This document shows, piece by piece, positions 48,889 through 63,391 of a stretch of 64,000 nucleotides of DNA (the stretch's first letter is position 1; each line of letters starts with the position of its first letter). Both the position numbers and the translations under genes were made by a program. Origin of the DNA: Macrostomum lignano (Eukaryota); the NCBI GenBank assembly GCA_002269645.1, contig NIVC01000544.1:481167-545166 (forward strand). Direction: 5' to 3'. Below the pieces are notes generated by a model. It searched no databases. It was given only the letters and a program-made list of their open reading frames with translations, and was not told the origin of the DNA.

Positions 48889-49454
48889 TGGCAATAGTGC
48901 AGTTTCGTTTGGGTTTGCGAAATTATTTTTTGTTTAAATTTGAAAGTTCGAAACCAGAAAACAATAACAACAATAAAAATTGATGTTTTAAACCATTCTA
49001 ACGATTGTGGCAAAGACCATGGCAGCCATCAGGTCGCGCACATCTAGCTCTAGTTGCGGTAGAGCATTTGCTGGCAGCACTTCATTTGGCGGAATTATTT
49101 ACAAGGGTCTTGGTTGTTGTCCAGCCATGATACAATATGTTGTCCAAATGAAAAAGCAGATATTAGCAGCTTCTCAGCTAAAGGGAAACAGTTCAAGCCC
49201 CCCCCACTTGAGCCCCTTTCAATTTTTTAAACTTTTTTCTATAGACAAATTGCATTTCAAGTAGCATTCGAGCGTGGCACAGATTTAATAAAAAAGTATA
49301 TTAATAGAGCGCCCATTTGCTTTAAAGTTCCGTGACCAGTGAGCTCTGGCATAGTCATTAGAATGGTTTAAAACATTGTTATTATTGTTTTCTAGTTTCA
49401 AACTTTCAAATTTAACCAAAAAATAATTTCGCGAACGAAACTGCACTATTGCCA
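48889..49454. mobile_element. Non-autonomous TIR DNA transposon (566 bp) with ~110-120-bp TIRs and a 6-bp TSD (AATAGG)
   Basis: Arms TGGCAATAGTGCAG...AAACCATTCTAA and the reverse complement ending at 49454. AATAGG flanks both sides (48883-48888, 49455-49460). Confidence 0.75.
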
Positions 49455-50993: not shown

Positions 50994-51790
50994 TGTGGTA
51001 GGGCACCTTTTATTATTCTCTAAATCCCACCGCAATCACCAAGTTGTGGGAGGTGGATTTAATTATTATAACTATCCCACCGATGCACCAAGTTGTTACC
51101 GGTCTCTACTGTTATTGAATTTTATCTCACTGTGCCACCAAGTTGTTGAAGGGGGGGGGGTTTGGCTGTAATTCTAGAATTTTATTATATTAGCTTATTG
51201 AATTCGTTATGAACTAAAATACGATGTTACTGAGGTAAGGCTATGGGCTTTCATGTAAGCACGGATTGCCCTGGTAGCGCGCAATGCCCAAGCGGCAAGA
51301 CACTGTTCAGCTAGGGGGGGAGGGGGATGACTAAGTCCTAAAGCAGCGTCCTCCAATGGATCGAGTTTGCCCGGTGAATTTCAATTTCCTCTTATGGATT
51401 TTCTTTTGTCATATACGACTTTCCATTGGTTGTTCAGTTCGAACAGTTTATTTGGATATTTCTCCCTTTTCAATTGGCTCTCTACGCCTTTACTGTTCGC
51501 GGTTCCACTATTGGCTTTTAGACTGTTTGTCTTTTGCTCTTGGTAATTTCTACCTCTTGTCCAATGAGCATTCGCTCTCAGCTTTTGGCAAATAAGGAAG
51601 ACTTTGAAAGATTCTTCAAATTTTGTTAGGCAAATCGCCTATGAACCTGAAAACTCGGTTGCCTCTCTGGGCGCTGAATTCCCTTCTATTTATACGAAAA
51701 TTGGGGTGGGGACGGGTGCATTCAAACAAAATTCTACAAACTTCATAGTTACTAAGAAAACGGCAGGGATTCAAAACTTGGCCTCTCTCA
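50994..51790 (-). repeat. 3' LTR of the Gypsy element (797 bp)
   Basis: Direct repeat of 60149-60944. Confidence 0.95.
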
Positions 51791-51803
51791 ACTGGCTTCC
51801 CTA
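51791..51803 (-). promoter_or_regulatory. Polypurine tract candidate
   Basis: Minus-strand AGGGAAGCCAGT immediately precedes the 3' LTR TG. Short and imperfect. Confidence 0.5.
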
Positions 51804-52458
51804 AGGATAATTTTCGAATAAGAGAAAATAAAAGTGAGAAAATTATTCTACTCATTACTATCAGTAGTAAAAAAGGTGCAATAAAGTAATTAATGATAGA
51901 GCTAGATAAACAGACACAAAAATAAAACTTGTTTAGAAATAGGTGCACATAAAGTGTAGGCATAATCGTAGATAGAATATGAAAGCATATAAAAATTAAG
52001 CGGTACTCGCAGTTTCGAAAATTAAGCAATAAATGTGATAGATTAATCGCCAAGCTAAGTATGAAGTTGCAAACTAGAATTTGTTGATACATGCTTAGGG
52101 ATTAAAATGAGTGTAAGATAAAATTTGTAAGCATAGGTGTGAAAGTGCATTTCTTTATGTAGGAGAGAGCATTTATGCTCATCTGGCGGATAAGTAGACA
52201 AAATCGTCGATGAGTACTAGTATACTAATTGAACAACTGTGCATAATTGCTTGCATAAAAATCAAACTATAAAAATGTAGCGCGTTGCAGGCATAAAGTC
52301 AACTAAGTATTATTTCAAAGCACCATAGAATAATAATTCAAGCAATTGAGTATTAAACTGACATAGATAAACATTAAGCTCACACGTCTATGAAATGATC
52401 TGTAATATTGTAAGTAAGTAAACCTATGCTAGCATCACTGGCATTAATAGTTCATATC

Positions 52459-54042
52459 TCACTCCATGTCGAACTCCTCCGGCAGCGGTCCTCCCCAGTC
52501 AAGAATCTTGGCCATCCACCTCACCTCAATTCGGAGAAGGGTGGCATAGTACGGCTGGCCAGCCGCACATAACGCCTGCAGCGCGTAGGCAACTGCCCGC
52601 CTCCAAGCGGCAATTGCCTACTCCTGCGAATAACTGTTGGTGAGCAGAGTTAGAACCGGCTGCACATGGGCTCTCTGTGGTAGAGCGCGATCCAATCTGA
52701 CGTTCGCAATGCGCATGAGGTATGCCTTAATCAGGGCAATCTTTTTCTTGAAATGGGCGTGCCGCTCTTCTGGCATCTCGCTCAGAATGCGGCTTAGGTT
52801 GGCGCCAAGCCCGTTCTCGTCGATGGGGCGCGGGAACTGTCTCCGCTCCGGTTGCTGTTGATATTGAGGCTGGCTCACGGCGCAAGCCCCTGTCTTCCAG
52901 TCATTTGCTTGCGGGTAGATCATTGTCTGACGCGGCGGATAGGAGGCCGATTGTGAAGCCTGCGGTTGTTGTTGCAGCAGAGGTAGCGACGCTTGCGGCT
53001 GCGCCTGTTGCGACCATACCAGCGGTTGTGGCTGTGGTTGCTGCTGCGGTTGCGGCGGCTGCGGCGGCTGCGGCTGCGTCAACGGCTGCGGCGGCTGCGG
53101 CTGCGGCTGCGTCAACAGCTGCGGCGGCGGCTGCGGTTGCGGCTGCGTCTGCAGCTGCGGCTGCGGCTGCGTCTGCGGCTTTGGCTGTCGCCGAGCCGGC
53201 TGCCGGCGGGGCGCTGATGATGACTTCCTCCGTGATGCCGTTGACTCCTGTCGAGCCGATCTCGCTTTCGGCGGGGATGTTCGCACCGGTCGTTGCTGCT
53301 GTGGTGGAGGCCTTGGCAAGATCCGCCGCACTGCGGGGCCAAGACGCAGCATTACCGTCGAATTTGCGGCCTCTGGGTGCCTCTTGGCAACATCAGGGCT
53401 GTCGATGACTCTGGCCGCCTGCCGTTGCAGGATGGCAGCACGATTCTCAACAGCCTGAGACACCGGGATTCGTGACGTAGCAGTCTTCTTGAACTGTACC
53501 GGGGCTCGCACTGGTGACCCGACTCGCTTGACCACCGACCGTAACCGGGCTCCGGGCTTAGTCGGCAGTGTGCGCTGTCTTTCGGGCACCTCTAAGTCTC
53601 GGTCACCTCAAATCGGTGGGCGTTTCGAAACAGTGCTCTGGTTGTCATTGGCCGCGTCGCCCTGCTTGCCTGCAATAGCGCCGGCTTCAGTGCCCGTTCT
53701 GGCTGGTGCCCACACAACAGTGCCAGCGTTGGCGGTTGCAATCGTGCCAGAGTCGGCCAGTACAGGGGTGCCAGATTCGGCAGATGCGGCTGTGCGAGGT
53801 TCGGCGGTTGCTGATGTGCCAGGTTTGGCAATTGTGCCAGATTCGGCGGTTGCTGATGTGCCAGGTTCGGCAATTGTGCCAGATTCGGCAATTGTGCCAG
53901 ATTCGGCAATTGTGCCAGATTCGGCGGTTGCTGATGTGCCAGGTTCGGCAGTCGCTACCACTACTTCCTCCTGGAGATCGAACGGGTCGTCCAAACTCAG
54001 GAGCTAGTTGAGCAAGAAAAATTCGTCTTCTTGATCACTCAT
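52459..54042 (-). pseudogene. Gypsy accessory ORF3 (~527 codons, one frame, three in-frame stops), not env-like
   Basis: ATG at 54042 (MSDQEDEFFLLN*LLSLDDPF); stops at 54004-6, 53608-10 and 52618-20; natural TGA at 52459. Contains acidic TAESG repeats, a basic/Ser-Arg segment, a Pro/Gln linker and a non-repetitive C-terminal ~130 aa. Confidence 0.7.
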
Positions 54043-54074
54043 AGCTGTTTCCGAAATTCTCGGTATCTCTGCAA

Positions 54075-54305
54075 ATATGTGAGGCTTCCGGGGCGTCAGG
54101 GGCCTCGCTTATATAGGCCTCTCCGGGGGGGTCCCAGGAAAGGGATCGTGGCCTCTGATTTGCTTAGACAGCCAATTTCCCAACGTGCTCTCATTGGCTC
54201 TCCGCACCCAACTTCTCTCTTCCAATGGGATTGCTTCCTCACGCCTTTGCGCCTGTGCGCGCCTTCCTTCTGCTTCCCGTCTCTCAATAGGTCAGATTGG
54301 GCAAT
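54075..54305 (-). promoter_or_regulatory. Candidate internal Pol II promoter upstream of ORF3
   Basis: Minus strand: CCAAT boxes (~54300, ~54197), CCTATATAAG (TATA at 54109-54115) and Inr-like CTCACAT ~30 nt downstream, ~40 nt before the ATG. Confidence 0.5.
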
Positions 54306-57300
54306 AGGCGCCACACTGTAATCAGCCTTTTCAGATAGCACAAGCATCTGTTCAGGGGCTTAATCTGACTACGAGTGTTGTACCTCTTCTCAGGTCTAGG
54401 CGCCTCTTCGGTAATCTTGTTTGCCTCTTGCTCAGGTTCGAGCTCTTCTCTTTCTTCCTCTTGCATTGGTTCTGCTTCTTCTACTTCACTGCCTTCTTCC
54501 TCAAAAATCTCACTATCAGACTCACTTGATACTTCATCCTTGCTTTCACTTTCTGGCTCTAAATTATCATTGTCTCGGAGATTGCATTGCCAATTCAGGC
54601 GGTCTTCATCTTCCGATTCTTCATATTCTTCTATCTCTTCCCTCCGGGGGTGGCATCCCTTAACTTTTGCTTCTGCGGTGCTGCGCTGGCTTCCCTTAAC
54701 TTTAGGTTCTCTCGCAATCGCAGTTTTGTCTAACTGGCTGGCGGCAATTTCTTTAACTGAATTTGGCACTACAGCTAAATTGTCCCTATGCACTAACAAC
54801 TCTTTCCCTTCTAGCTTTCCTTCTTCCTCCTTCTGCACCTTAAATACTACTTCTGAAATTTGCTTCAAAACTCGGTATGCTGATCTTCGCTGTCTATGGA
54901 ATTTATGCGACTCCTCGTTATCTAGCTGCGGGTTATTAATAAGCACTAAACTTCCTAACGGTACTTCCTTTGGCAGTTTGCTAGTTTCAGCAGCGGTCTG
55001 TCTTTGGTTTATCACCTTTTCCAATTTCTCTTTTACGAGTTTCTGGGCGACATTTAGTCTTTCGGCATGTTCGGCAACATAGGATGGATAGCCTGCGTAG
55101 TGCTTTGGGTCCTTGATCTGATTGTCCATAGGTAACACGGCTTCCCTTCCAAATAACAGGAAATGGGGTGTGAAACCTGTTGTCTGATTGATACTGGTTC
55201 GGACAGCAACTAGCGCAGCTGGAATCATTAGATCCCAGTTATTGTGGTCTTTCTTGATAAGGCAGGTAATAATAGACTTGATCTGCTTATTGAACCTTTC
55301 TACCAAGCCGTTGCTCTGGGCATGGTAGGGGGTAGTGAATGTCTGCTTGACATTATAGAGTTCACAGAAAGCCTTGAACTGTCTGCTGGGGAATGTTTTA
55401 CCATTATCGGTATGAATCCAGTGGCACTGTCCATACTCACTGAAGATTCTCTCCTGCAGGATTTTAATGACAGTGTCTGATTTCTGGTTGCGGATCGGAA
55501 AGGCAAAGGGGTATCGCGTGGTGCTATCAACCACTGTGAGCACATATCGATGCCCTCTTCTACTCTGCTTGGATATTGGCCCGATTATGTCAATATGGAG
55601 GCGGTGAAATGGCTCGCTGATAGGGAAGGACTGGATGGGGGCTTGGACCTTGTGTCCTCGTTTGCTTTCCAGGCAGGGTATACATTCAGAGATGTACTTC
55701 TCAACTGCCGTGTTCAGACCGGGTCTCCAAAATCTCTCGCGGACTTTCTGGATGGTCTTGTCTCTGCCTAAGTGTCCAGCTAGTGGGCTATCGTGGAGAT
55801 CGCCAAGAACTAGCCTGTCTAATGACTCTGGCAGGACAACCTTCCAATTTTCGTCCTCTTTCACGATTAACAATTCGTTTTCAATTCTCATAGCCTCATA
55901 GGCTTTGCACATTTGCTTTAACAGCGGGGGTTGGTTCTCTGGGGCACTGGGATTTCAACTTTCGCACATTTCCATTGCACGAGGGTTCGGATCGAGGGGT
56001 CCTCTCTCTGGGCATTAACAATTTGGTCACGCTTCAGCGGGACGGGGAGGTAGTCAGTCAAGAGCTTATCGACTCTTCGCACCTCGCTCTCTTGTTCGTG
56101 TTTGGACATTACAGGGATTTGGCTCGATTGCGCAAGGCTCAAGCTCAGTGGCTCCAAATTGTTATCCTGAACACAATTACAAGGGGGAGAGGGCTGGGGG
56201 ACTGAATGGCATGGGGGCTGGGCGGCTAAATGGTTCAGCGAGAGGGGGGTTGGAGCAGGACAGTCGGGTATTGAGTCCTCAACTGGCAGCTGGGCCTGGC
56301 TTGTACAGCTGTCCTCTGCCTTTGCCTTCTGACTCAGTTCGGCCAATTCGGCTCTGTTGGGGGAGGGAAATTCTGGGTTGGCATTATCGCCTTTAGTCAC
56401 CAATTCAGTGTTTGACTTATCACTCTGGCCTGTTTCGGCTGTCTCCGTGGGTCTCCTAGACAAGCTGTCCGCGTTGGTATGCTTGGCGCCACTTCTGTGT
56501 TCAATGTCAAACTGAAACTCAGTCAGGCGCTCAATCCAACGTCCTAAGATACCCTGGGCTTCAGTCTGCCATAGCAACCAGAGGATTGCTTTATGGTCAG
56601 TTCGGGCGAGAAATCTTTTTCCGATCAAATAGAAACGAAAATGTCTCATAGCGTCTACAAGTGCTAACAACTCCTTTCAAGTGATAGGGTAGCACTTTTC
56701 CGACTCTTTCATTGCGCGGCTAAAGTACGCAATAGGCCTTTCAATACCATCGGACTGGATCTGACCTAAACGGGCCCCAATCCGTCCTTCACTGGCATCG
56801 GTATCCAGAACCATTTTGACATTTTTGTCATCTACGAATTCAGGATACGCAAGCACCTCTGTTGACATCATGCGCTGTTTTAATGATTCAAAAGCCTTAT
56901 CATGCACATCTGTCCATTTTGCTGAGAAATTTTGCACTCCCTTTCGGGTGAGCTGGAACAGTGGGTGCGCGGCTTCAGCATAGTTTTTCACGAATCGACT
57001 GTAATAATTACACAGTCCTAAAAAGCTACGTAGCTCTTTCACCTCTTTCAGTTTAGGCCAGCTTTTGATCGCTTCGATCTTTGCTTCGTCACTTCGAATA
57101 CCATCTCTACCTATCACGTGGCCTAAATACTTCAGCTCTCTATGGAACAAATTGCACTTTTTCGCTCTAAGCTTCAATCCGGCATTGATTAGTCTCTGGA
57201 AAACTTCTTTCAAATGGGACAAATGGTCTTCGAACTGTTTTGAATAAGTGACAATATCGTCAATATAGGACATAGCAAACTTGTGCTGAATTCCAGCGAG

Positions 57301-58760
57301 TACTAAGTTCATTAGCCTCTGAAAGGTACCGGGAGCATTGGATAGTCCCTGCGCCATCACCTGGTACTCAAACTGTCCTCTAGTCAGGGTGGAGAAAGCT
57401 GTCATGAACTTATGTTCTTCCTTAATTGGGACCTGCCAATAGCCTGAGTTAAGATTGAGGCTACTGAAGAATTGGCTTCCTGTGAGATTAGAGAAGGTTT
57501 CTTGGATGTTTGGGAGAGGGTAGGGGAAATAGTTCACTCGCGAGTTTAACACTCGGAAATCGTTGACAATGCGAATGGTGCCATCTTTCTTTGGCACGAT
57601 GACTAGTGGGGTGGAATAGGTGGAATAGCAGGGACGGATGAGATTTTTCGCTAGCATATCGTCTAGCTGGGCGTCGACCTGCTTTTGGAGATGGGGAGGA
57701 ATTCGGCGAGTAGGGATTCTCACAAGGGGTCTCGTCTTTCAAAGAAATTTCTTGGGTCACTAAATGAGTTAGCCCCATATCGAGGTCATTTTGAGAGAAA
57801 GCTTCTCGATGCTCTTTTACTAATGCTACTACTGCTGCTCTCTGTTCAGTAGTCAAATCAGTACCAATGCTAATTTCACTCACCCTTTCTTCTTCAGTGG
57901 CTTGGACCTGATTGACACGGGCTGAGTCTTGTACTTCCGCTGATGGCTGCTGATCAGATGTCGGTGCTGACCAATAGAGCAGATCTTTGGCCTTCATGGG
58001 CTTAGCGAGCCCTACCAATGCAGATTTGGGCAACCTGACTTCAATGGGGTGCCAATTCACAATTTCGACGACTGCGGCGCCCTGCTGCATGGTGACCAGA
58101 GTCGGGATCATTTCATCGTTAGCTCTTTGGCTCTTACGCCATCACCAATTGTTTCTATGTCATTGGAGCGCCATAGTTAGCTTCGGCATTCTCCACCAGT
58201 CTAACTGGAATGCGCAGTGCGCTATTCGCAGGGATAATTGCCTTTTCTTGAGTGTACACTCTGCAGACTCGTACAGGCATGTGCGTGTACTGCATAGGTA
58301 TGCAGGCTCCTTCTTTTAGGATCAGCATCCCTTTTGTCAGATGAATGCTTTCGCACTGCTCAAGAAAGAATTCCATTCCCAAAATGTTGTCACATTCGTG
58401 GCCACATAATAGGAACATTATTTCAATTCGAATATCTCCAAACTCAACAGCAACGGAAATTTCTCCTTCTAGCTGTACTGTGGCTCCGTCAAAAGTAGAT
58501 ACTCTTCTACTTGTACTCTTGATTTGCTTAGGCTTGAAAATTTTAGACCAGACTGACTTACTCAGGAAATTATTGCTAGCTCCAGTATCTAGCAGGAAGT
58601 CAATCTCTTGGCGATTGATGTTGCCTACTACGATTGCTTCGTAGCTCTTGGGGCTGATTAGCTCGAGTTTGGCATTGGCTGGAGTCTTCTTGGATTTGCG
58701 GCGGCGGTTTCGACGCGACTTCTTGGGCTTGACAGTCATCGCGTGATGACTGAGGTCTCG
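54284..58760 (-). pseudogene. Gypsy pol (protease-RT-RNase H-integrase), broken by frameshifts and a stop
   Basis: PR FLLDTGASNNF; RT PLVIVPKKDGTIRIVNDFRVLN and YIDD; RH DTDASEGRIGARL and LALVDAMRHFRFYLIG; IN HDSPLAGHLG..C..C, HIDIIGP, TDNG, NGLVERFN. Breaks near 58150, 57720, 56672 and 55916. Confidence 0.95.
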
Positions 58761-60052
58761 GCGGTTGACACATTGGGCGAAGTAAGCAATTGGGATGCTG
58801 CGGCAGCAGATGCGGGTGCTGCAGCAGCGGGTGCTGATACTGTAGACATAGATGATGCAGGCATAGTAGACGCAGTTGGTGCAGACATAGTGGACGCAGT
58901 TGGTGCATTTCGCATAGATACAGGGTGCATTTTCGCATTGGGTGCATAAGCATTTCGCTTGCGCCTTTTTACAAGTTGCCATCCTCCGTTTGCTGTATCA
59001 CAAGCGGGTTGGCGGGGATTTTGGGAGGCCTGCATTTCGCTTGGGGTTCTGCTTGAGGGATATGGCCTCGACTTCCGACCCTCGCCATTCAGTTTCCCTG
59101 ATTCAGGTTTCTTGGAGGAAATCGGTGCTGGTTGGGTCTAGCTGATGGTGGCTGAGACTGCGCTGGGAACCTGGGATGCTGGTTCATTAGTGGGGGTGGC
59201 CGTGGCTGATACGCCCTCGGCTGATAGCGCACATGCTGGGGCTAAGAAGCCATTTGCTGATATCGTACAGGCTGAGGCTGTACTATAGCAGGCTGATAAT
59301 GCACTGGCTGAGTAGCCATTGGCTGATACACCTGCACCTTCTCTTTGTGGCTCTCCGCCTGTAGCTCCTGAATGAGTTTTCGCTGCTTTTCCAGCTCCTC
59401 TTTCTGCTTCTTGACGACTTCTGTCAGGCTCTCTTTCTCTCCTTCTTGTCTTTAATCACTCTTACTCCGTTCTTGTGGGACATGTGCCAAGCAGCTTCAA
59501 TGCGCCTCAACATGCGCCTAGCTTCCTGCAGGCTAGCTGGCTGCGCAAAAATCAGCTTCTCCCTTGTATCTGAGGGGATTCTGACACCTTTTATGAATTG
59601 TTCTACCACTTCTTCTTCTCTTTGCTTGGCATTCATGTTTGGGAATGCTCGGCTTGACAGCTCTATCAGGGCATCAGCGAACATGTCGGTCGCCTCATTT
59701 CTTCCCTGCATCCTTCCTCTAAATTCTTCATGAACTCGGAAGCACTTCCTAGCCTACCAAATCTTTCTACAAGCCTATCCTTAAACTCCTCATAGGTCAA
59801 CTCTTCTGGCAAATTCAATCGCTGAACTGCAGCGAAAGCAGTTGACAAGTCCAAATTAGCTACTAACTCAGTTTTCCTATTGGCTACGTCTATTCCTTTG
59901 GCGTCACATCGCTGATCAAAGGCTACCAGCCAGATTCAGATGTCTTGGCTGGGGGTATACTTCTGAATTTTAATATGTCTCATGGGCCCTAGTTCTAATC
60001 TATTCCTCAACTCTTCTGCTAATAGTCCAATAGTATCATTGATTGCTGCCAT
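58736..60052 (-). pseudogene. Gypsy gag, disrupted
   Basis: GCC ATG G at 60052, premature TGA at 59936-8, frameshifts near 59710 and 59430. Capsid-like LTYEEFKDRLVERF and EEVVEQFIKG..REKL..QPASLQEA, then coiled-coil and Gln/Pro-rich segments. Confidence 0.85.
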
Positions 60053-60133: not shown

Positions 60134-60145
60134 CCGCTGCCACCA
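60134..60145 (-). promoter_or_regulatory. Primer-binding site, probably tRNA-Leu
   Basis: TGGTGGCAGCGG lies 3 nt inside the 5' LTR end and is complementary to a tRNA ending ...CCGCTGCCA-CCA, as eukaryotic tRNA-Leu(AAG/TAG) do. Assignment is from recall; the host tRNA set was not seen. Confidence 0.75.
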
Positions 60146-60148
60146 AGT

Positions 60149-60944
60149 TGTGGTAGGGCACCTTTTATTATTCTCTAAATCCCACCGCAATCACCAAGTT
60201 GTGGGAGGTGGATTTAATTATTATAACTATCCCACCGATGCACCAAGTTGTTACCGGTCTCTTTACTGTTATTGAATTTTATCTCACTGTGCACCAAGTT
60301 GTTGAAGGGGGGGGTTTGGCTGTAATTCTAGAATTTTATTATATTAGCTTATTGAATTCGTTATGAACTACTAAAATAAGATGTTACTGAGGTAAGGCTA
60401 TGGGCTTTCACGTAAGCACAGATTGCCCTGGTAGCGCGCAGTGCCCGAGCGGCAAGACACTGTTCAGCTAGGGGGGGAGGGGGATGACTAAGTCCTAAAG
60501 CAGCGTCCTCCAATGGATCGAGTTTGCCCAGTGAATTTCAATTTCTCTTACAGATTTTCTTTTGTCATATACGACTTTCCATTGGTTGTTCAGTTCGAAC
60601 AGTTTATTTGGATATTTCTCCCTCTTCAATTGGCTCTCTACGCCTTTACTGTTCGCAGTTCCGCTATTGGCTTTTAGACTGTTTGTCTTTTGCTCTTGGT
60701 AATTTCTACCTCTTGTCCAATGAGCATTCGCTCTCAGCTTTTGGCAAATAAGGAAGACTTTGAAAGATTCTTCAAATTTTGTTAGGCAAATCGCCTATGA
60801 ACCTGAAAACTCGGTTGCCTCTCTGGGCGCTGAATTCCCTTCTATTTATACGAAAATTGGGGTGGGGACGGGTGCATTCAAACAAAATTCTACAAACTTC
60901 AGTTACTAAGAAAACGGCAGGGATTCAAAACTTGGCCTCTCTCA
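60149..60944 (-). repeat. 5' LTR of the Gypsy element (796 bp)
   Basis: Direct repeat of 50994-51790, followed by the PBS. Confidence 0.95.
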
Positions 60945-62694
60945 CATATAATTTCTTTTTATTAGCACTTTTTGTTTGCTGATGTATTGATGGCTTTTTA
61001 ATTAATGAACCTTTATATTGTGTTTTCTATGAAACAGATCAAATACAAGTTTTACTAGTCTTTTTTAAATAGAAAATTACTGATTTTTGCATTTTTTCTA
61101 AAAGTTGTGGTATAGCCTATTAAAACTTTCTTGATAGGATTTATTCTAATGCAGGCATGTTATGATCTTGACTATGATATGAGACTATAATTGGGCATAT
61201 TTTCTTTGGCATTCTAGATTATTTTCTTGCATTTCTAGATTGACAATTTAGCAATTTGTTTCACTTTCCTGCTTTAGACTAGGCTACTATGCTGTATGGC
61301 TCATTGATTTTTTATTTTGACTTTTAGTTTTTTTCCTTATTATTTTTTTATTCTTTAGACCTACTGGTAAAGCAAAAAATCTAGAAAATAAGGCCTAATT
61401 TAGAGTGGGAAACTAAAGTTAAATAAAAAACAATATAGATAGCATAGGTCTATAGTTAGACTAATAGAATAAGTGCAGGTTGTTTTGGGGACAGACATTT
61501 TGGTAAAAAATATAAATAGTTGTTTTGATAACCTTTGTTTTTTAAAAGGCCATAGTTTGGAAGGCAACATGTATGCTAGGATTTCCTAGTGTATAACAAG
61601 GGTATTAGCCATTTTTAGTGTACATTAGCATATATCCTAGTATATATAACAGTGGAAACAGTTGTCAATAATATATTTGTTTAGTCCCAGTGTACAAACA
61701 AGGTCTCATATTTTTTCTAGCATTCAACCAATTGTATACTAATACACAATATGAACTATGGTAAAAAGGAAATATTTGGTTAATGTCAACTGGTCATTTT
61801 AAATGATAGGCATATAATAATTATAAAGTTAAAATTGATCCATCTAGCTTTGAAGGCTGTCCTGATTGTAGTACTACTTTTCATTATATCTCCTATTCTA
61901 ATGATCTAACTAATATCATTTTGCACAAAATTATAGCAGCAACTCTCTCTATATTAACTTTAATATCTTCAAAATCAGACAATTGAAAACATATAGAAGA
62001 GTTTGACTATAAACTTATAATAAGTCAACAAATCAACAAAAAGTAGGAGCAAAGCAAAAAGTAGCAAGATAAGCAACATATTATGACATGACAATTTAAA
62101 ATTAAGCTATTGTGTGGCAGTTTTTTCTATATTTTAAATAAAAACTTAAATGTAGATTTAGATAAAATAAATATAAATATAAATAAAAAATGATGAAACT
62201 AAGAAAATTGTATTTATACTATATAAACAATGAGTACTTTAGGAAACTTGCCTTAGTAATAAAATGATGCCCTAAAATTGGTATTAGTAAGTTCTTTTTC
62301 ACCACTCCCAAAAAGAAAAGGAAAAATGATGGGTTTTAAAAAAGTTTTTAAGGAAAAAAGGTTCAAGTTTTTAAAATGAAGCCATTTAATTTACTATATA
62401 TCCTTAACCTGGAACACCAGAGCCTGTGCTAGACCGCTGGGCTAGGCCCCCCTCGACTTACCTATGAAAGAAACCAAAGAAAAAGTTTTGGGTAAACATC
62501 AGAATTAATAATCAGTAAATTATTAAGGCTAAATGCCTCATTTACTTAGTACTATATGTGTTTTCTGGTTAGCATTTTTGTGACGTACCTTGGCCAGACT
62601 TCTCACTACCTAGCCAAAACGGCCAGGTTGGTGGGGTGTTGGGCATGCATGTATAAAGGGTAGGCTAGAGATTAGAGGTTAGATGGGAGAAGAA

Positions 62695-63260
62695 TCCCAA
62701 TTTTTGCTGGGACTTTAGATTATTATTGGGATCCCAATTTTGCTGGGATTTCACAAATTTGAGATTGAGATCCCAGTTTTGCTGGGACTTCAAGATTATA
62801 ATTGGATCCCAATTTTGCTAGGATTTCACAATTGAGATTGAGATCCCAATTTTGATGGGATTTCAAGATTATGGTTGGGATCCCAATTTTGCTGGGACTT
62901 CACAATTGAGATTGAGATCCCAATTTTGCTGGGACTTCAAGATTATGATTGGGATCCCAATTTTGATGGGATTTCACAATTGAGATTGAGATCCCAATTT
63001 TGCTGGGACTTCAAGATTATGATTGGGATCCCAATTTTGCTGGGATTTCACAATTGAGATTGAGATCCCAATTTGCTGGGACTTCAAGATTATTATTGGG
63101 ATCCCAATTTTGCTGGGATTTCACAATTGAGATTGAGATCCCAATTTGCTGGGACTTCAAGATTATTATTGGATCCCAATTTTGCTGGGATTTCACAATT
63201 GAGATTGAGATCCCAAATTTGATGGGATTTTATCATTGAGATTATAAATTTTTCTGGGAT
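62695..63260. repeat. Alternating A/B ~37-bp minisatellite (GATCCCAATTTTGCTGGGA + CTTCAAGATTATTATTGG or TTTCACAATTGAGATTGA), ~15 units
   Basis: Tandem units share a TCCCA...TGGGA hairpin core. Confidence 0.92.
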
Positions 63261-63391
63261 TTGAAGATTAGGATCATAATTTTTGCGGGGATTTCGGGAT
63301 CGGCATTGAGAGGAGCTCAATTTAGCCGTTTGGCACTTAGATTCTAATGTCAAGAGAACTAAACTAAAAACTGAAAGGTAATTTTAAAAAA

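Follow-up and report, generated by a model that had tools for sequence, protein, structure and literature searches.

A decayed copy of a clade-wide, non-envelope third gene in a Ty3/Gypsy LTR element of Macrostomum lignano, and the exchange of its versions between near-identical backbones

The window, a stretch of 64,000 nucleotides from the genome of Macrostomum lignano, carries an LTR element on its minus strand, to which all element coordinates below refer. The 5′ LTR (60149..60944) and the 3′ LTR (50994..51790) are identical in 777 of 788 aligned columns, and a 4-bp target-site duplication, TATG, is found on both flanks. The primer-binding site TGGTGGCAGCGG (60134..60145), recognized by its sequence, is presumably of the tRNA-Leu type. 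It is followed by gag (59089..60052), broken by a frameshift and stops and assigned through a weak Retrotrans_gag match in sister copies, and by pol (54284..59140, upstream end approximate), which contains stops and frameshifts and in which Pfam recognizes protease, RT, RNase H, and an integrase with an acidic tail. A third gene, ORF3 (52459..54042), precedes an AT-rich 3′ untranslated region with a polypurine tract (51791..52458), which by comparison with the sister copy L115 belongs to the exchanged block considered below. Since the LTR pair, primer-binding site, polypurine tract, and target-site duplication are all present, and the Pfam order in pol is protease-RT-RNase H-integrase, the window contains a Ty3/Gypsy LTR element of complete layout, with gag, pol, and ORF3 all broken in this copy. 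The first-pass annotation had overlooked the broken gag and pol, the promoter-like region before the ORF3 start codon, and the clade-wide occurrence of ORF3.

The RT motifs point, as our guess, to the Gmr1/Osvaldo cluster rather than to Mag or CsRN1. The survey of M. lignano elements lists the families Mag, CsRN1, Mdg3, and Gmr1/Osvaldo (PMC12801592); by term search, the word 'ORF' is absent from the text of this survey, and the identifiers of the database relatives of ORF3 are absent from its five supplements. Canonical heat-shock elements were found in 0 of 26 LTRs, which argues that these elements are not the heat-induced families of that survey. In the LTR (51213-51700 and 60370-60850), a TATA box lies ~95 nt from the start and several CCAAT boxes come after it; the bulk of the LTR is thus downstream of this box. 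At its 3′ end (60149-60310 and 50994-51150), three repeats resembling the primer-binding site, each preceded by a word resembling the LTR end, occur in every clade and give the impression of repeated duplication of the U5-PBS junction. The end of the integrase (54284-54700) consists of a long acidic tail and then a short conserved basic/Cys motif, also in the relatives.

The ORF3 frame extends over 527 codons from the ATG at 54042 to the TGA at 52459 and is interrupted by stops at codons 13, 145, and 475 (54004-54006, 53608-53610, and 52618-52620, respectively). The first-pass annotation had proposed a frame of about 527 codons hidden by three nonsense mutations, and both parts of this proposal held: translation recovered the same coordinates, and all three stop positions are sense codons in related copies. 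In dinucleotide shuffles a frame of this length contained 12.2 stops on average, and three or fewer in only 0.4% of 500 shuffles. A further copy, on contig C467, shares the second and third stops, lacks the first, and has one extra stop; since its flanks are 98.6% identical to those in the window, it represents one and the same insertion, duplicated along with its surroundings, and provides no independent evidence. ORF3 in the window is thus a decayed copy of a genuine third gene of a Ty3/Gypsy LTR element, as the translation and the unbroken relatives show.

The most conserved part of the protein is a five-helix C-terminal domain (CTD) of ~120 aa (52462..52821), which contains the third stop and is defined by alignment A1, the L115 model, and purifying selection. 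Six residues (D, P, E, W, W, and P) are invariant in an alignment of 30 natural CTDs, and the CTD model of L115 has five helices, with pLDDT 92.6 and pTM 0.87. The full-length L115 model is disordered except for the CTD, a helix at residues 8-13, and a helix at residues 161-173 (pLDDT ~79). The first of these helices lies in an acidic, hydrophobic N-terminal region (53953..54042) that, judging from its charge and the L115 model, may resemble an activation domain; in all 23 genomic ORF3s, the first 30 residues have a net charge of -7 to -11 and include 5-9 large hydrophobic ones. The disordered middle is net-basic in all 24 proteins and contains linear motifs (53300..53640, ends approximate; alignment A2 and L115 model), namely P-x-R-x-P-T-x-P-like, S-V-V-x-R, a short helix, and R-x-P-x-x-A, which are kept between clades with CTDs just 26-45% alike. 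The net charge of the CTD varies between +1 and +9 in 23 genomic copies. The layout described in the first-pass annotation, with an acidic start, AEPGTSATAESGTI-type repeats (family D4), a basic segment, a Pro/Gln linker, and a compact C-terminus, was confirmed, except that the AEPGTS repeats and the Pro/Gln tract are variable spacers in alignment A2 and not conserved features. An acidic start, a disordered motif-rich middle, and a small domain form the layout of many activators and adaptors.

This anatomy is unlike that of an envelope protein, in agreement with the earlier non-env claim. In the window protein and 24 relatives, no signal peptide or transmembrane anchor of the Env type was found, the maximal 19-residue Kyte-Doolittle hydropathy being 1.11; this verdict on membrane segments is based on hydropathy and the acidic N-termini. 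An Env fusion-protein domain or fold had no match in Pfam, PDB, or BFVD, and the model is a small helical bundle with disorder. It is therefore very improbable that ORF3 represents a degenerate env or a host fragment that was captured and is neutral: the position is that of env and the window copy is broken, but no transmembrane or signal-like segment and no env or host family match was found, including in the C-terminus, for which a match to an env or host gene fragment had been raised earlier as a check. The neutral variant is refuted by the purifying selection seen in all diverged pairs listed below.

Searches for a known relative of the CTD were likewise negative. Pfam gave no convincing match for pieces of the window, 30 CTDs, the longer proteins, or 12 sister-clade CTDs, and no match to DEDDy, GDSL, or J domains in 30 CTDs or four longer proteins; a PDB sequence search with the CTD and the sister-clade domain had no convincing match either. 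Foldseek searches of the CTD model against PDB and BFVD returned 0 matches at E<=0.001, and VIA-align a best Z of 7.6 (rmsd 3.3, 95 aligned), with none at Z>=8; the best structural rows are at a level common for helical bundles, and no known DNA-binding fold was matched. The top ESM Atlas scores (0.91 and 0.90, bacterial clusters with 127-129 shared features) were taken as noise, and the sister-clade domain had no usable match there. The CTD is therefore an orphan domain with no matched family or fold, the absence of matches being no proof of a new fold, and the earlier description of an uncharacterized accessory frame stands, for what is now a genuine gene.

The CTD is abundant in the genome. 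The CTD piece of the window retrieved 77 genome matches, and the CTD of a relative at least 150, all 150 scored having E<=5e-10 and 106 of them being free of stops. Open frames in other family copies, which the first-pass annotation had suggested looking for, were found: 26 of the 40 fetched loci, selected for a stop-free CTD and diversity, contain an unbroken ORF3 of 279-454 aa, and the LTR pairs of such elements are mostly 98-100% alike. Among the best 150 matches of an RT query, 112 have 76-100% identity and are separated by a gap from the next ones at 58-61%. The CTD was found in 5 of 12 further RT loci within this clade; of the remaining seven, six lack a substantial integrase match within the stretch, and L180 has most of the integrase and no CTD match. 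ORF3 is thus common to the element clade.

The sister clade (RT ~61%) has a third ORF of 240-290 aa with 75 matches (L186, L189, and L191-L235), the C-terminal domain of which is probably a remote homolog of the CTD, judging from cross-HMM searches (E 2.5e-5 and 8.8e-5, with reversed controls at 0.33 or worse) and from hhalign (E 3.7e-4, at a probability of just 36%). Another outgroup clade (RT 58-59%; L183:3382-4122, L185:3688-4212, L187, and L188) has one or two different orphan ORFs after the integrase, one of them, in the L183/L185 clade, being acidic and Pro-rich with a helical-looking end. A full HMMER protein search yielded nine matches, namely five proteins labeled M. lignano, one Logan protein, and three weak repeat proteins (E 1.8e-4 to 7.2e-4) that were rejected as relatives; the Logan protein is the sole convincing match of this search outside the M. 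lignano label. One database protein (P0004) is identical to the protein from locus L109. Word-indexed protein searches returned nothing, one protein, or the query alone. Contigs of four presumed RNA runs give thin, patchy coverage of the element.

The region between the pol stop and the ORF3 start codon (54043..54283) is a predicted internal promoter, as suggested by its motifs, a shuffle test, and 92% identity to L115. It contains CCAAT/ATTGG boxes at 54226, 54197, and 54176 and a TATATAA box at 54109-54115, i.e., at -73 from the ATG. A TATA box was observed at -72 to -106 in all seven loci of the group of the window (shuffle P 0.0025-0.058 in the five loci tested). A canonical TATA box is present in one of eight clade-B loci, where pyrimidine-rich stretches precede the ATG, and AG acceptor-like sites occur upstream of several ORF3 start codons in the group of the window; these features leave room for a spliced ORF3 message. 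All 13 clade-C elements contain a single copy of a 21-nt element, which in 12 of them lies 118-149 nt upstream of the ATG and which is absent from all 18 other elements. It has 447 exact genome matches, versus 0 for a control, many in tandem arrays away from ORF3 elements. Such arrays, with differing spacers, are seen at unrelated loci (L154-L156, L158-L160, L163, L165, and L169). At two loci (L161:3208-3233 and L167:3406-3431), a single copy immediately precedes the TATA-like box of a host gene for linker histone H1, so that the 21-nt element is probably a genuine promoter element read by a host factor, and likely the site of a host DNA-binding protein. A literature search found no paper describing this element of the H1 promoter. 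Taken from these sequence features, ORF3 is likely expressed from its own internal promoter. Local alignments of promoter and LTR scored above each of 30 shuffles in just 5 of 22 elements, largely owing to AT-rich words, and a Tas-like response element shared by LTR and internal promoter was not clearly found among these 22.

Selection on the CTD was assessed by pairwise Nei-Gojobori counts. The window and L115 CTDs are 72% identical with pN 0.20 and pS 0.81; the corresponding values are 85%, 0.08, and 0.74 for L079 and L081, and 80%, 0.11, and 0.73 for L105 and L106. The CTD is therefore under strong purifying selection in every diverged pair listed, and C-terminal dN/dS, which had been proposed earlier as a check, is not near 1.

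The RTs of the same elements are far closer. RT dS is 0.11 for the window and L115 (over part of RT) and 0.21 for L079 and L081; for L102 it is 0.02 with L110 and 0.03 with L113, at CTD identities of 44 and 65%, respectively. Over the same pairs, RT dS of 0.02-0.40 compares with CTD pS of 0.59-0.77. Within a clade, gag-pol bins are mostly 85-100% identical, versus mostly 0-77% for the bins of ORF3 and the 3′ UTR. Between the window and L115, identity is 92% in the promoter region and 89% over the 60 nt preceding the ATG, the coding part is saturated, and the 3′ UTR is at chance level (identity 0.51 versus 0.49 for the shuffled null). Near-identical RTs with synonymously saturated ORF3s identify ORF3 as an allelic series that is old and reshuffled. 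We considered local hypermutation of ORF3 and rejected it: in the young pairs window-C759, L082-L084, and L082-L085, ORF3 differences are about as few as in pol, which favors old versions reshuffled by recombination.

Trees of 33 CTD rows and 22 RT rows, with topologies compared without a formal test, both recover clades B and C and disagree within clades; for example, L110 and L113 are RT sisters and have CTDs in different supported groups. Since loci were selected for CTD diversity, the count of versions per backbone is biased upward. U3 tracks the ORF3 version, also when an autonomous element is compared with a pol-less one (81-100% identity for the same version and ~42-78% otherwise, with a null of ~50%). 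U3 adjoins ORF3 in the RNA, so linkage alone could explain this co-variation; the window and L115 LTRs are 76-97% alike in seven of eight bins though their ORF3s are saturated. The ORF3 coding region and 3′ UTR, loosely with U3, are exchanged as a block between near-identical gag-pol backbones.

This exchange extends to elements with no pol. The 14 pol-less LTR elements examined (L096, L105, L107, L109, L111, L112, L134-L136, L138, L139, and L142-L144) keep the primer-binding site and the ORF3 promoter element, and 13 of them contain a 110-197-aa piece of a diverged mini-Gag. ORF3 version and U3 are common to satellite and autonomous partner for L109/L138 and L137, L142/L143 and L110, and L144 and L114; satellites thus trade ORF3 versions and U3 with autonomous elements. 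These satellites are young and ~5 kb long; their mini-Gag of ~195 aa contains a Cys/His motif, and repeats of a hairpin-like AAAAGGGCCGTTTT word are found inside them. The clade-C leaders of L096, L102, L109, L110, L143, and L144 have tandem AGAAACGGC repeats, in 1-9 copies, after the primer-binding site; AGAAACGGC/AAAAGGGCCGTTTT-type repeats are listed for clade-C leaders, satellite interiors, and the region upstream of the host CTD-only gene described below. Repeated leader motifs were seen in clade C alone.

Retention of ORF3 by satellites bears on two other readings of its role. In the first, ORF3 is a post-transcriptional helper comparable to Rev or CERV, which binds element RNA and aids nuclear export, stability, or packaging of genomic RNA, the RNA signal possibly being the co-exchanged 3′ UTR. 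The net-basic middle and a 3′ UTR that is exchanged with the coding region, with similarity between versions not above chance, are consistent with such a helper, for which CERV of Cer1 is a precedent (PMC10309623); yet the conserved acidic N-terminal helix suits activation better, no RNA-binding fold was matched, and the 3′ UTRs have no common sequence in the one pair measured, so we regard this reading as unlikely. In the second, ORF3 versions are incompatibility or immunity types, which repress or exclude competitors or give carrier cells a transmission advantage. Many old versions on one backbone form the pattern of negative frequency-dependent selection, and pol-less elements keep the gene, but no partner gene or antidote frame was seen and the anatomy has no hint of toxicity, which leaves this reading with a small probability.

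A gene for the CTD alone is found in the host. It is intronless, encodes 118 aa, is ~40% like the nearest ORF3, and occupies three syntenic host loci (G000:C846:44212-44568, C3012:52820-53176, and C2203:58541-58897; L129-L131). The clade-C promoter element and a TATA box precede it, and no gag, pol, or LTR match was found in the 30 kb examined around one of these loci. The frame is open at all three loci with pN 0.004-0.008 versus pS 0.01-0.04, changes too small to prove selection. This gene is a candidate domesticated inhibitor. It could act as a decoy if ORF3 were a counter-defence adaptor, blocking or degrading a host restriction or small-RNA protein with no direct action on the LTR and diversifying in an arms race. 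The motif-studded disorder with a small helical domain and the deep allelic series also fit such an adaptor; however, the benefit of an adaptor acting on the host would reach every element in trans, whereas satellites retain an ORF3 of their own and U3 varies along with the version, and selection on the CTD in pairwise counts is purifying rather than positive. We give this possibility a rather low weight.

In foamy viruses, Tas activates the LTR and has an acidic activation region, of which the acidic N-terminus of ORF3 is reminiscent. ORF3 resembles Tas in being a 3′ accessory gene with its own promoter, predicted in the case of ORF3, for which LTR activation is only proposed (PMC7828637); it differs in having no sequence or fold match to Tas in Pfam, BFVD, or PDB, in residing in a retrotransposon with no env, and in that a response element common to LTR and internal promoter is not established for ORF3 elements. 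Other systems give further parallels. VANC of Arabidopsis VANDAL is likewise an element-encoded accessory that, with non-coding sequence, diverges fast between close relatives, but it belongs to plant DNA transposons, acts on DNA methylation, and has no domain match to ORF3 (PMC5735166). CERV of Caenorhabditis elegans Cer1 is, like ORF3, a novel non-env accessory of an animal Gypsy element, whereas it is made from a spliced mRNA and exports genomic RNA (PMC10309623). The third gene of Oikopleura Tor is expressed from an internal promoter, as predicted for ORF3, but its product is a membrane Env (PMC4402516). The TRP28 ORFs of plant Retand elements are lineage-wide orphan ORFs between pol and the 3′ LTR with a proposed regulatory role; unlike ORF3, they are antisense and occur in plants (PMC11963269). 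Bdelloid rotifer LTR retrotransposons have non-env ORF3s (DEDDy, GDSL, and coiled-coil) that share with the M. lignano gene the position between pol and the 3′ LTR, the non-envelope character, an invertebrate host, and retention in a non-autonomous family; they are, however, recognizable captured enzymes or membrane proteins and typically spliced (PMC5408684), in contrast to the orphan domain, promoter-like region, and exchanged allelic series reported here. Non-env third ORFs (PMC5408684, PMC10309623, PMC11963269) and internal promoters for a third gene (PMC4402516) are thus already known. A literature search that included a term search of PMC13524379 and covered few subscription journals found no description of ORF3, the CTD, or such an allelic series, and no invertebrate LTR accessory protein described as the transcription activator of its own element.

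The explanation that we favor, tentatively and at somewhat less than an even chance, is that ORF3 has its own expression and acts in the nucleus to activate its element or relieve it from silencing, its versions being maintained by frequency-dependent selection; we infer nuclear location, target, and activation from the anatomy and from analogy with Tas and VANC. The first-pass annotation had likewise proposed a possibly nuclear factor with a transactivating or anti-silencing role, a proposal with which the anatomy and the promoter-like region are compatible. Host factors would read the CCAAT/TATA boxes or the H1-type element and produce a short ORF3 mRNA independent of the LTR. The CTD would dock on the DNA or RNA of the element, or on a host chromatin factor, and the acidic N-terminal helix and middle motifs would recruit co-activators, so that the LTR is turned on. 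Rare versions may be favored if they evade a host antagonist or a silencing of the ORF3 message that relies on its sequence, or if they are private to one U3, and old versions would persist while template switching homogenizes gag-pol. The acidic hydrophobic N-terminus, basic middle, promoter-like region, block exchange, and tracking of the version by U3 support activation by ORF3; it is weakened by the lack of a DNA-binding fold match for the CTD and of a clear LTR/promoter response element, and by the linkage of U3. Acidic helices serve other protein contacts too. A bolder form, in which ORF3 is an early-acting activator of transcription that has a new fold and a promoter borrowed from a histone gene, in which its ancient, MHC-like alleles are kept on a common gag-pol backbone and traded by satellites, and in which the host CTD-only version is a dominant-negative brake, seems to us improbable, if conceivable.

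A role is known for few of the accessory proteins in animal LTR retrotransposons. With ORF3, a genetically tractable animal offers an orphan domain that is found throughout a clade and strongly selected, together with natural variants, a candidate promoter, and a truncated host copy, which makes testable how such elements restart from silence. Under any mechanism, a gene saturated at synonymous sites on backbones that are nearly identical speaks for balancing selection within a transposon family.

Tandem elements spaced ~8-8.6 kb apart were observed on contigs C1098 (G000; L151 and L152), C241, and C2404, the C1098 pair having a common LTR. Outside the element, the window contains at 62694-63293 and 48913-49436 a 37-bp tandem array and a 520-bp, MITE-like element with 62-nt inverted arms, respectively.
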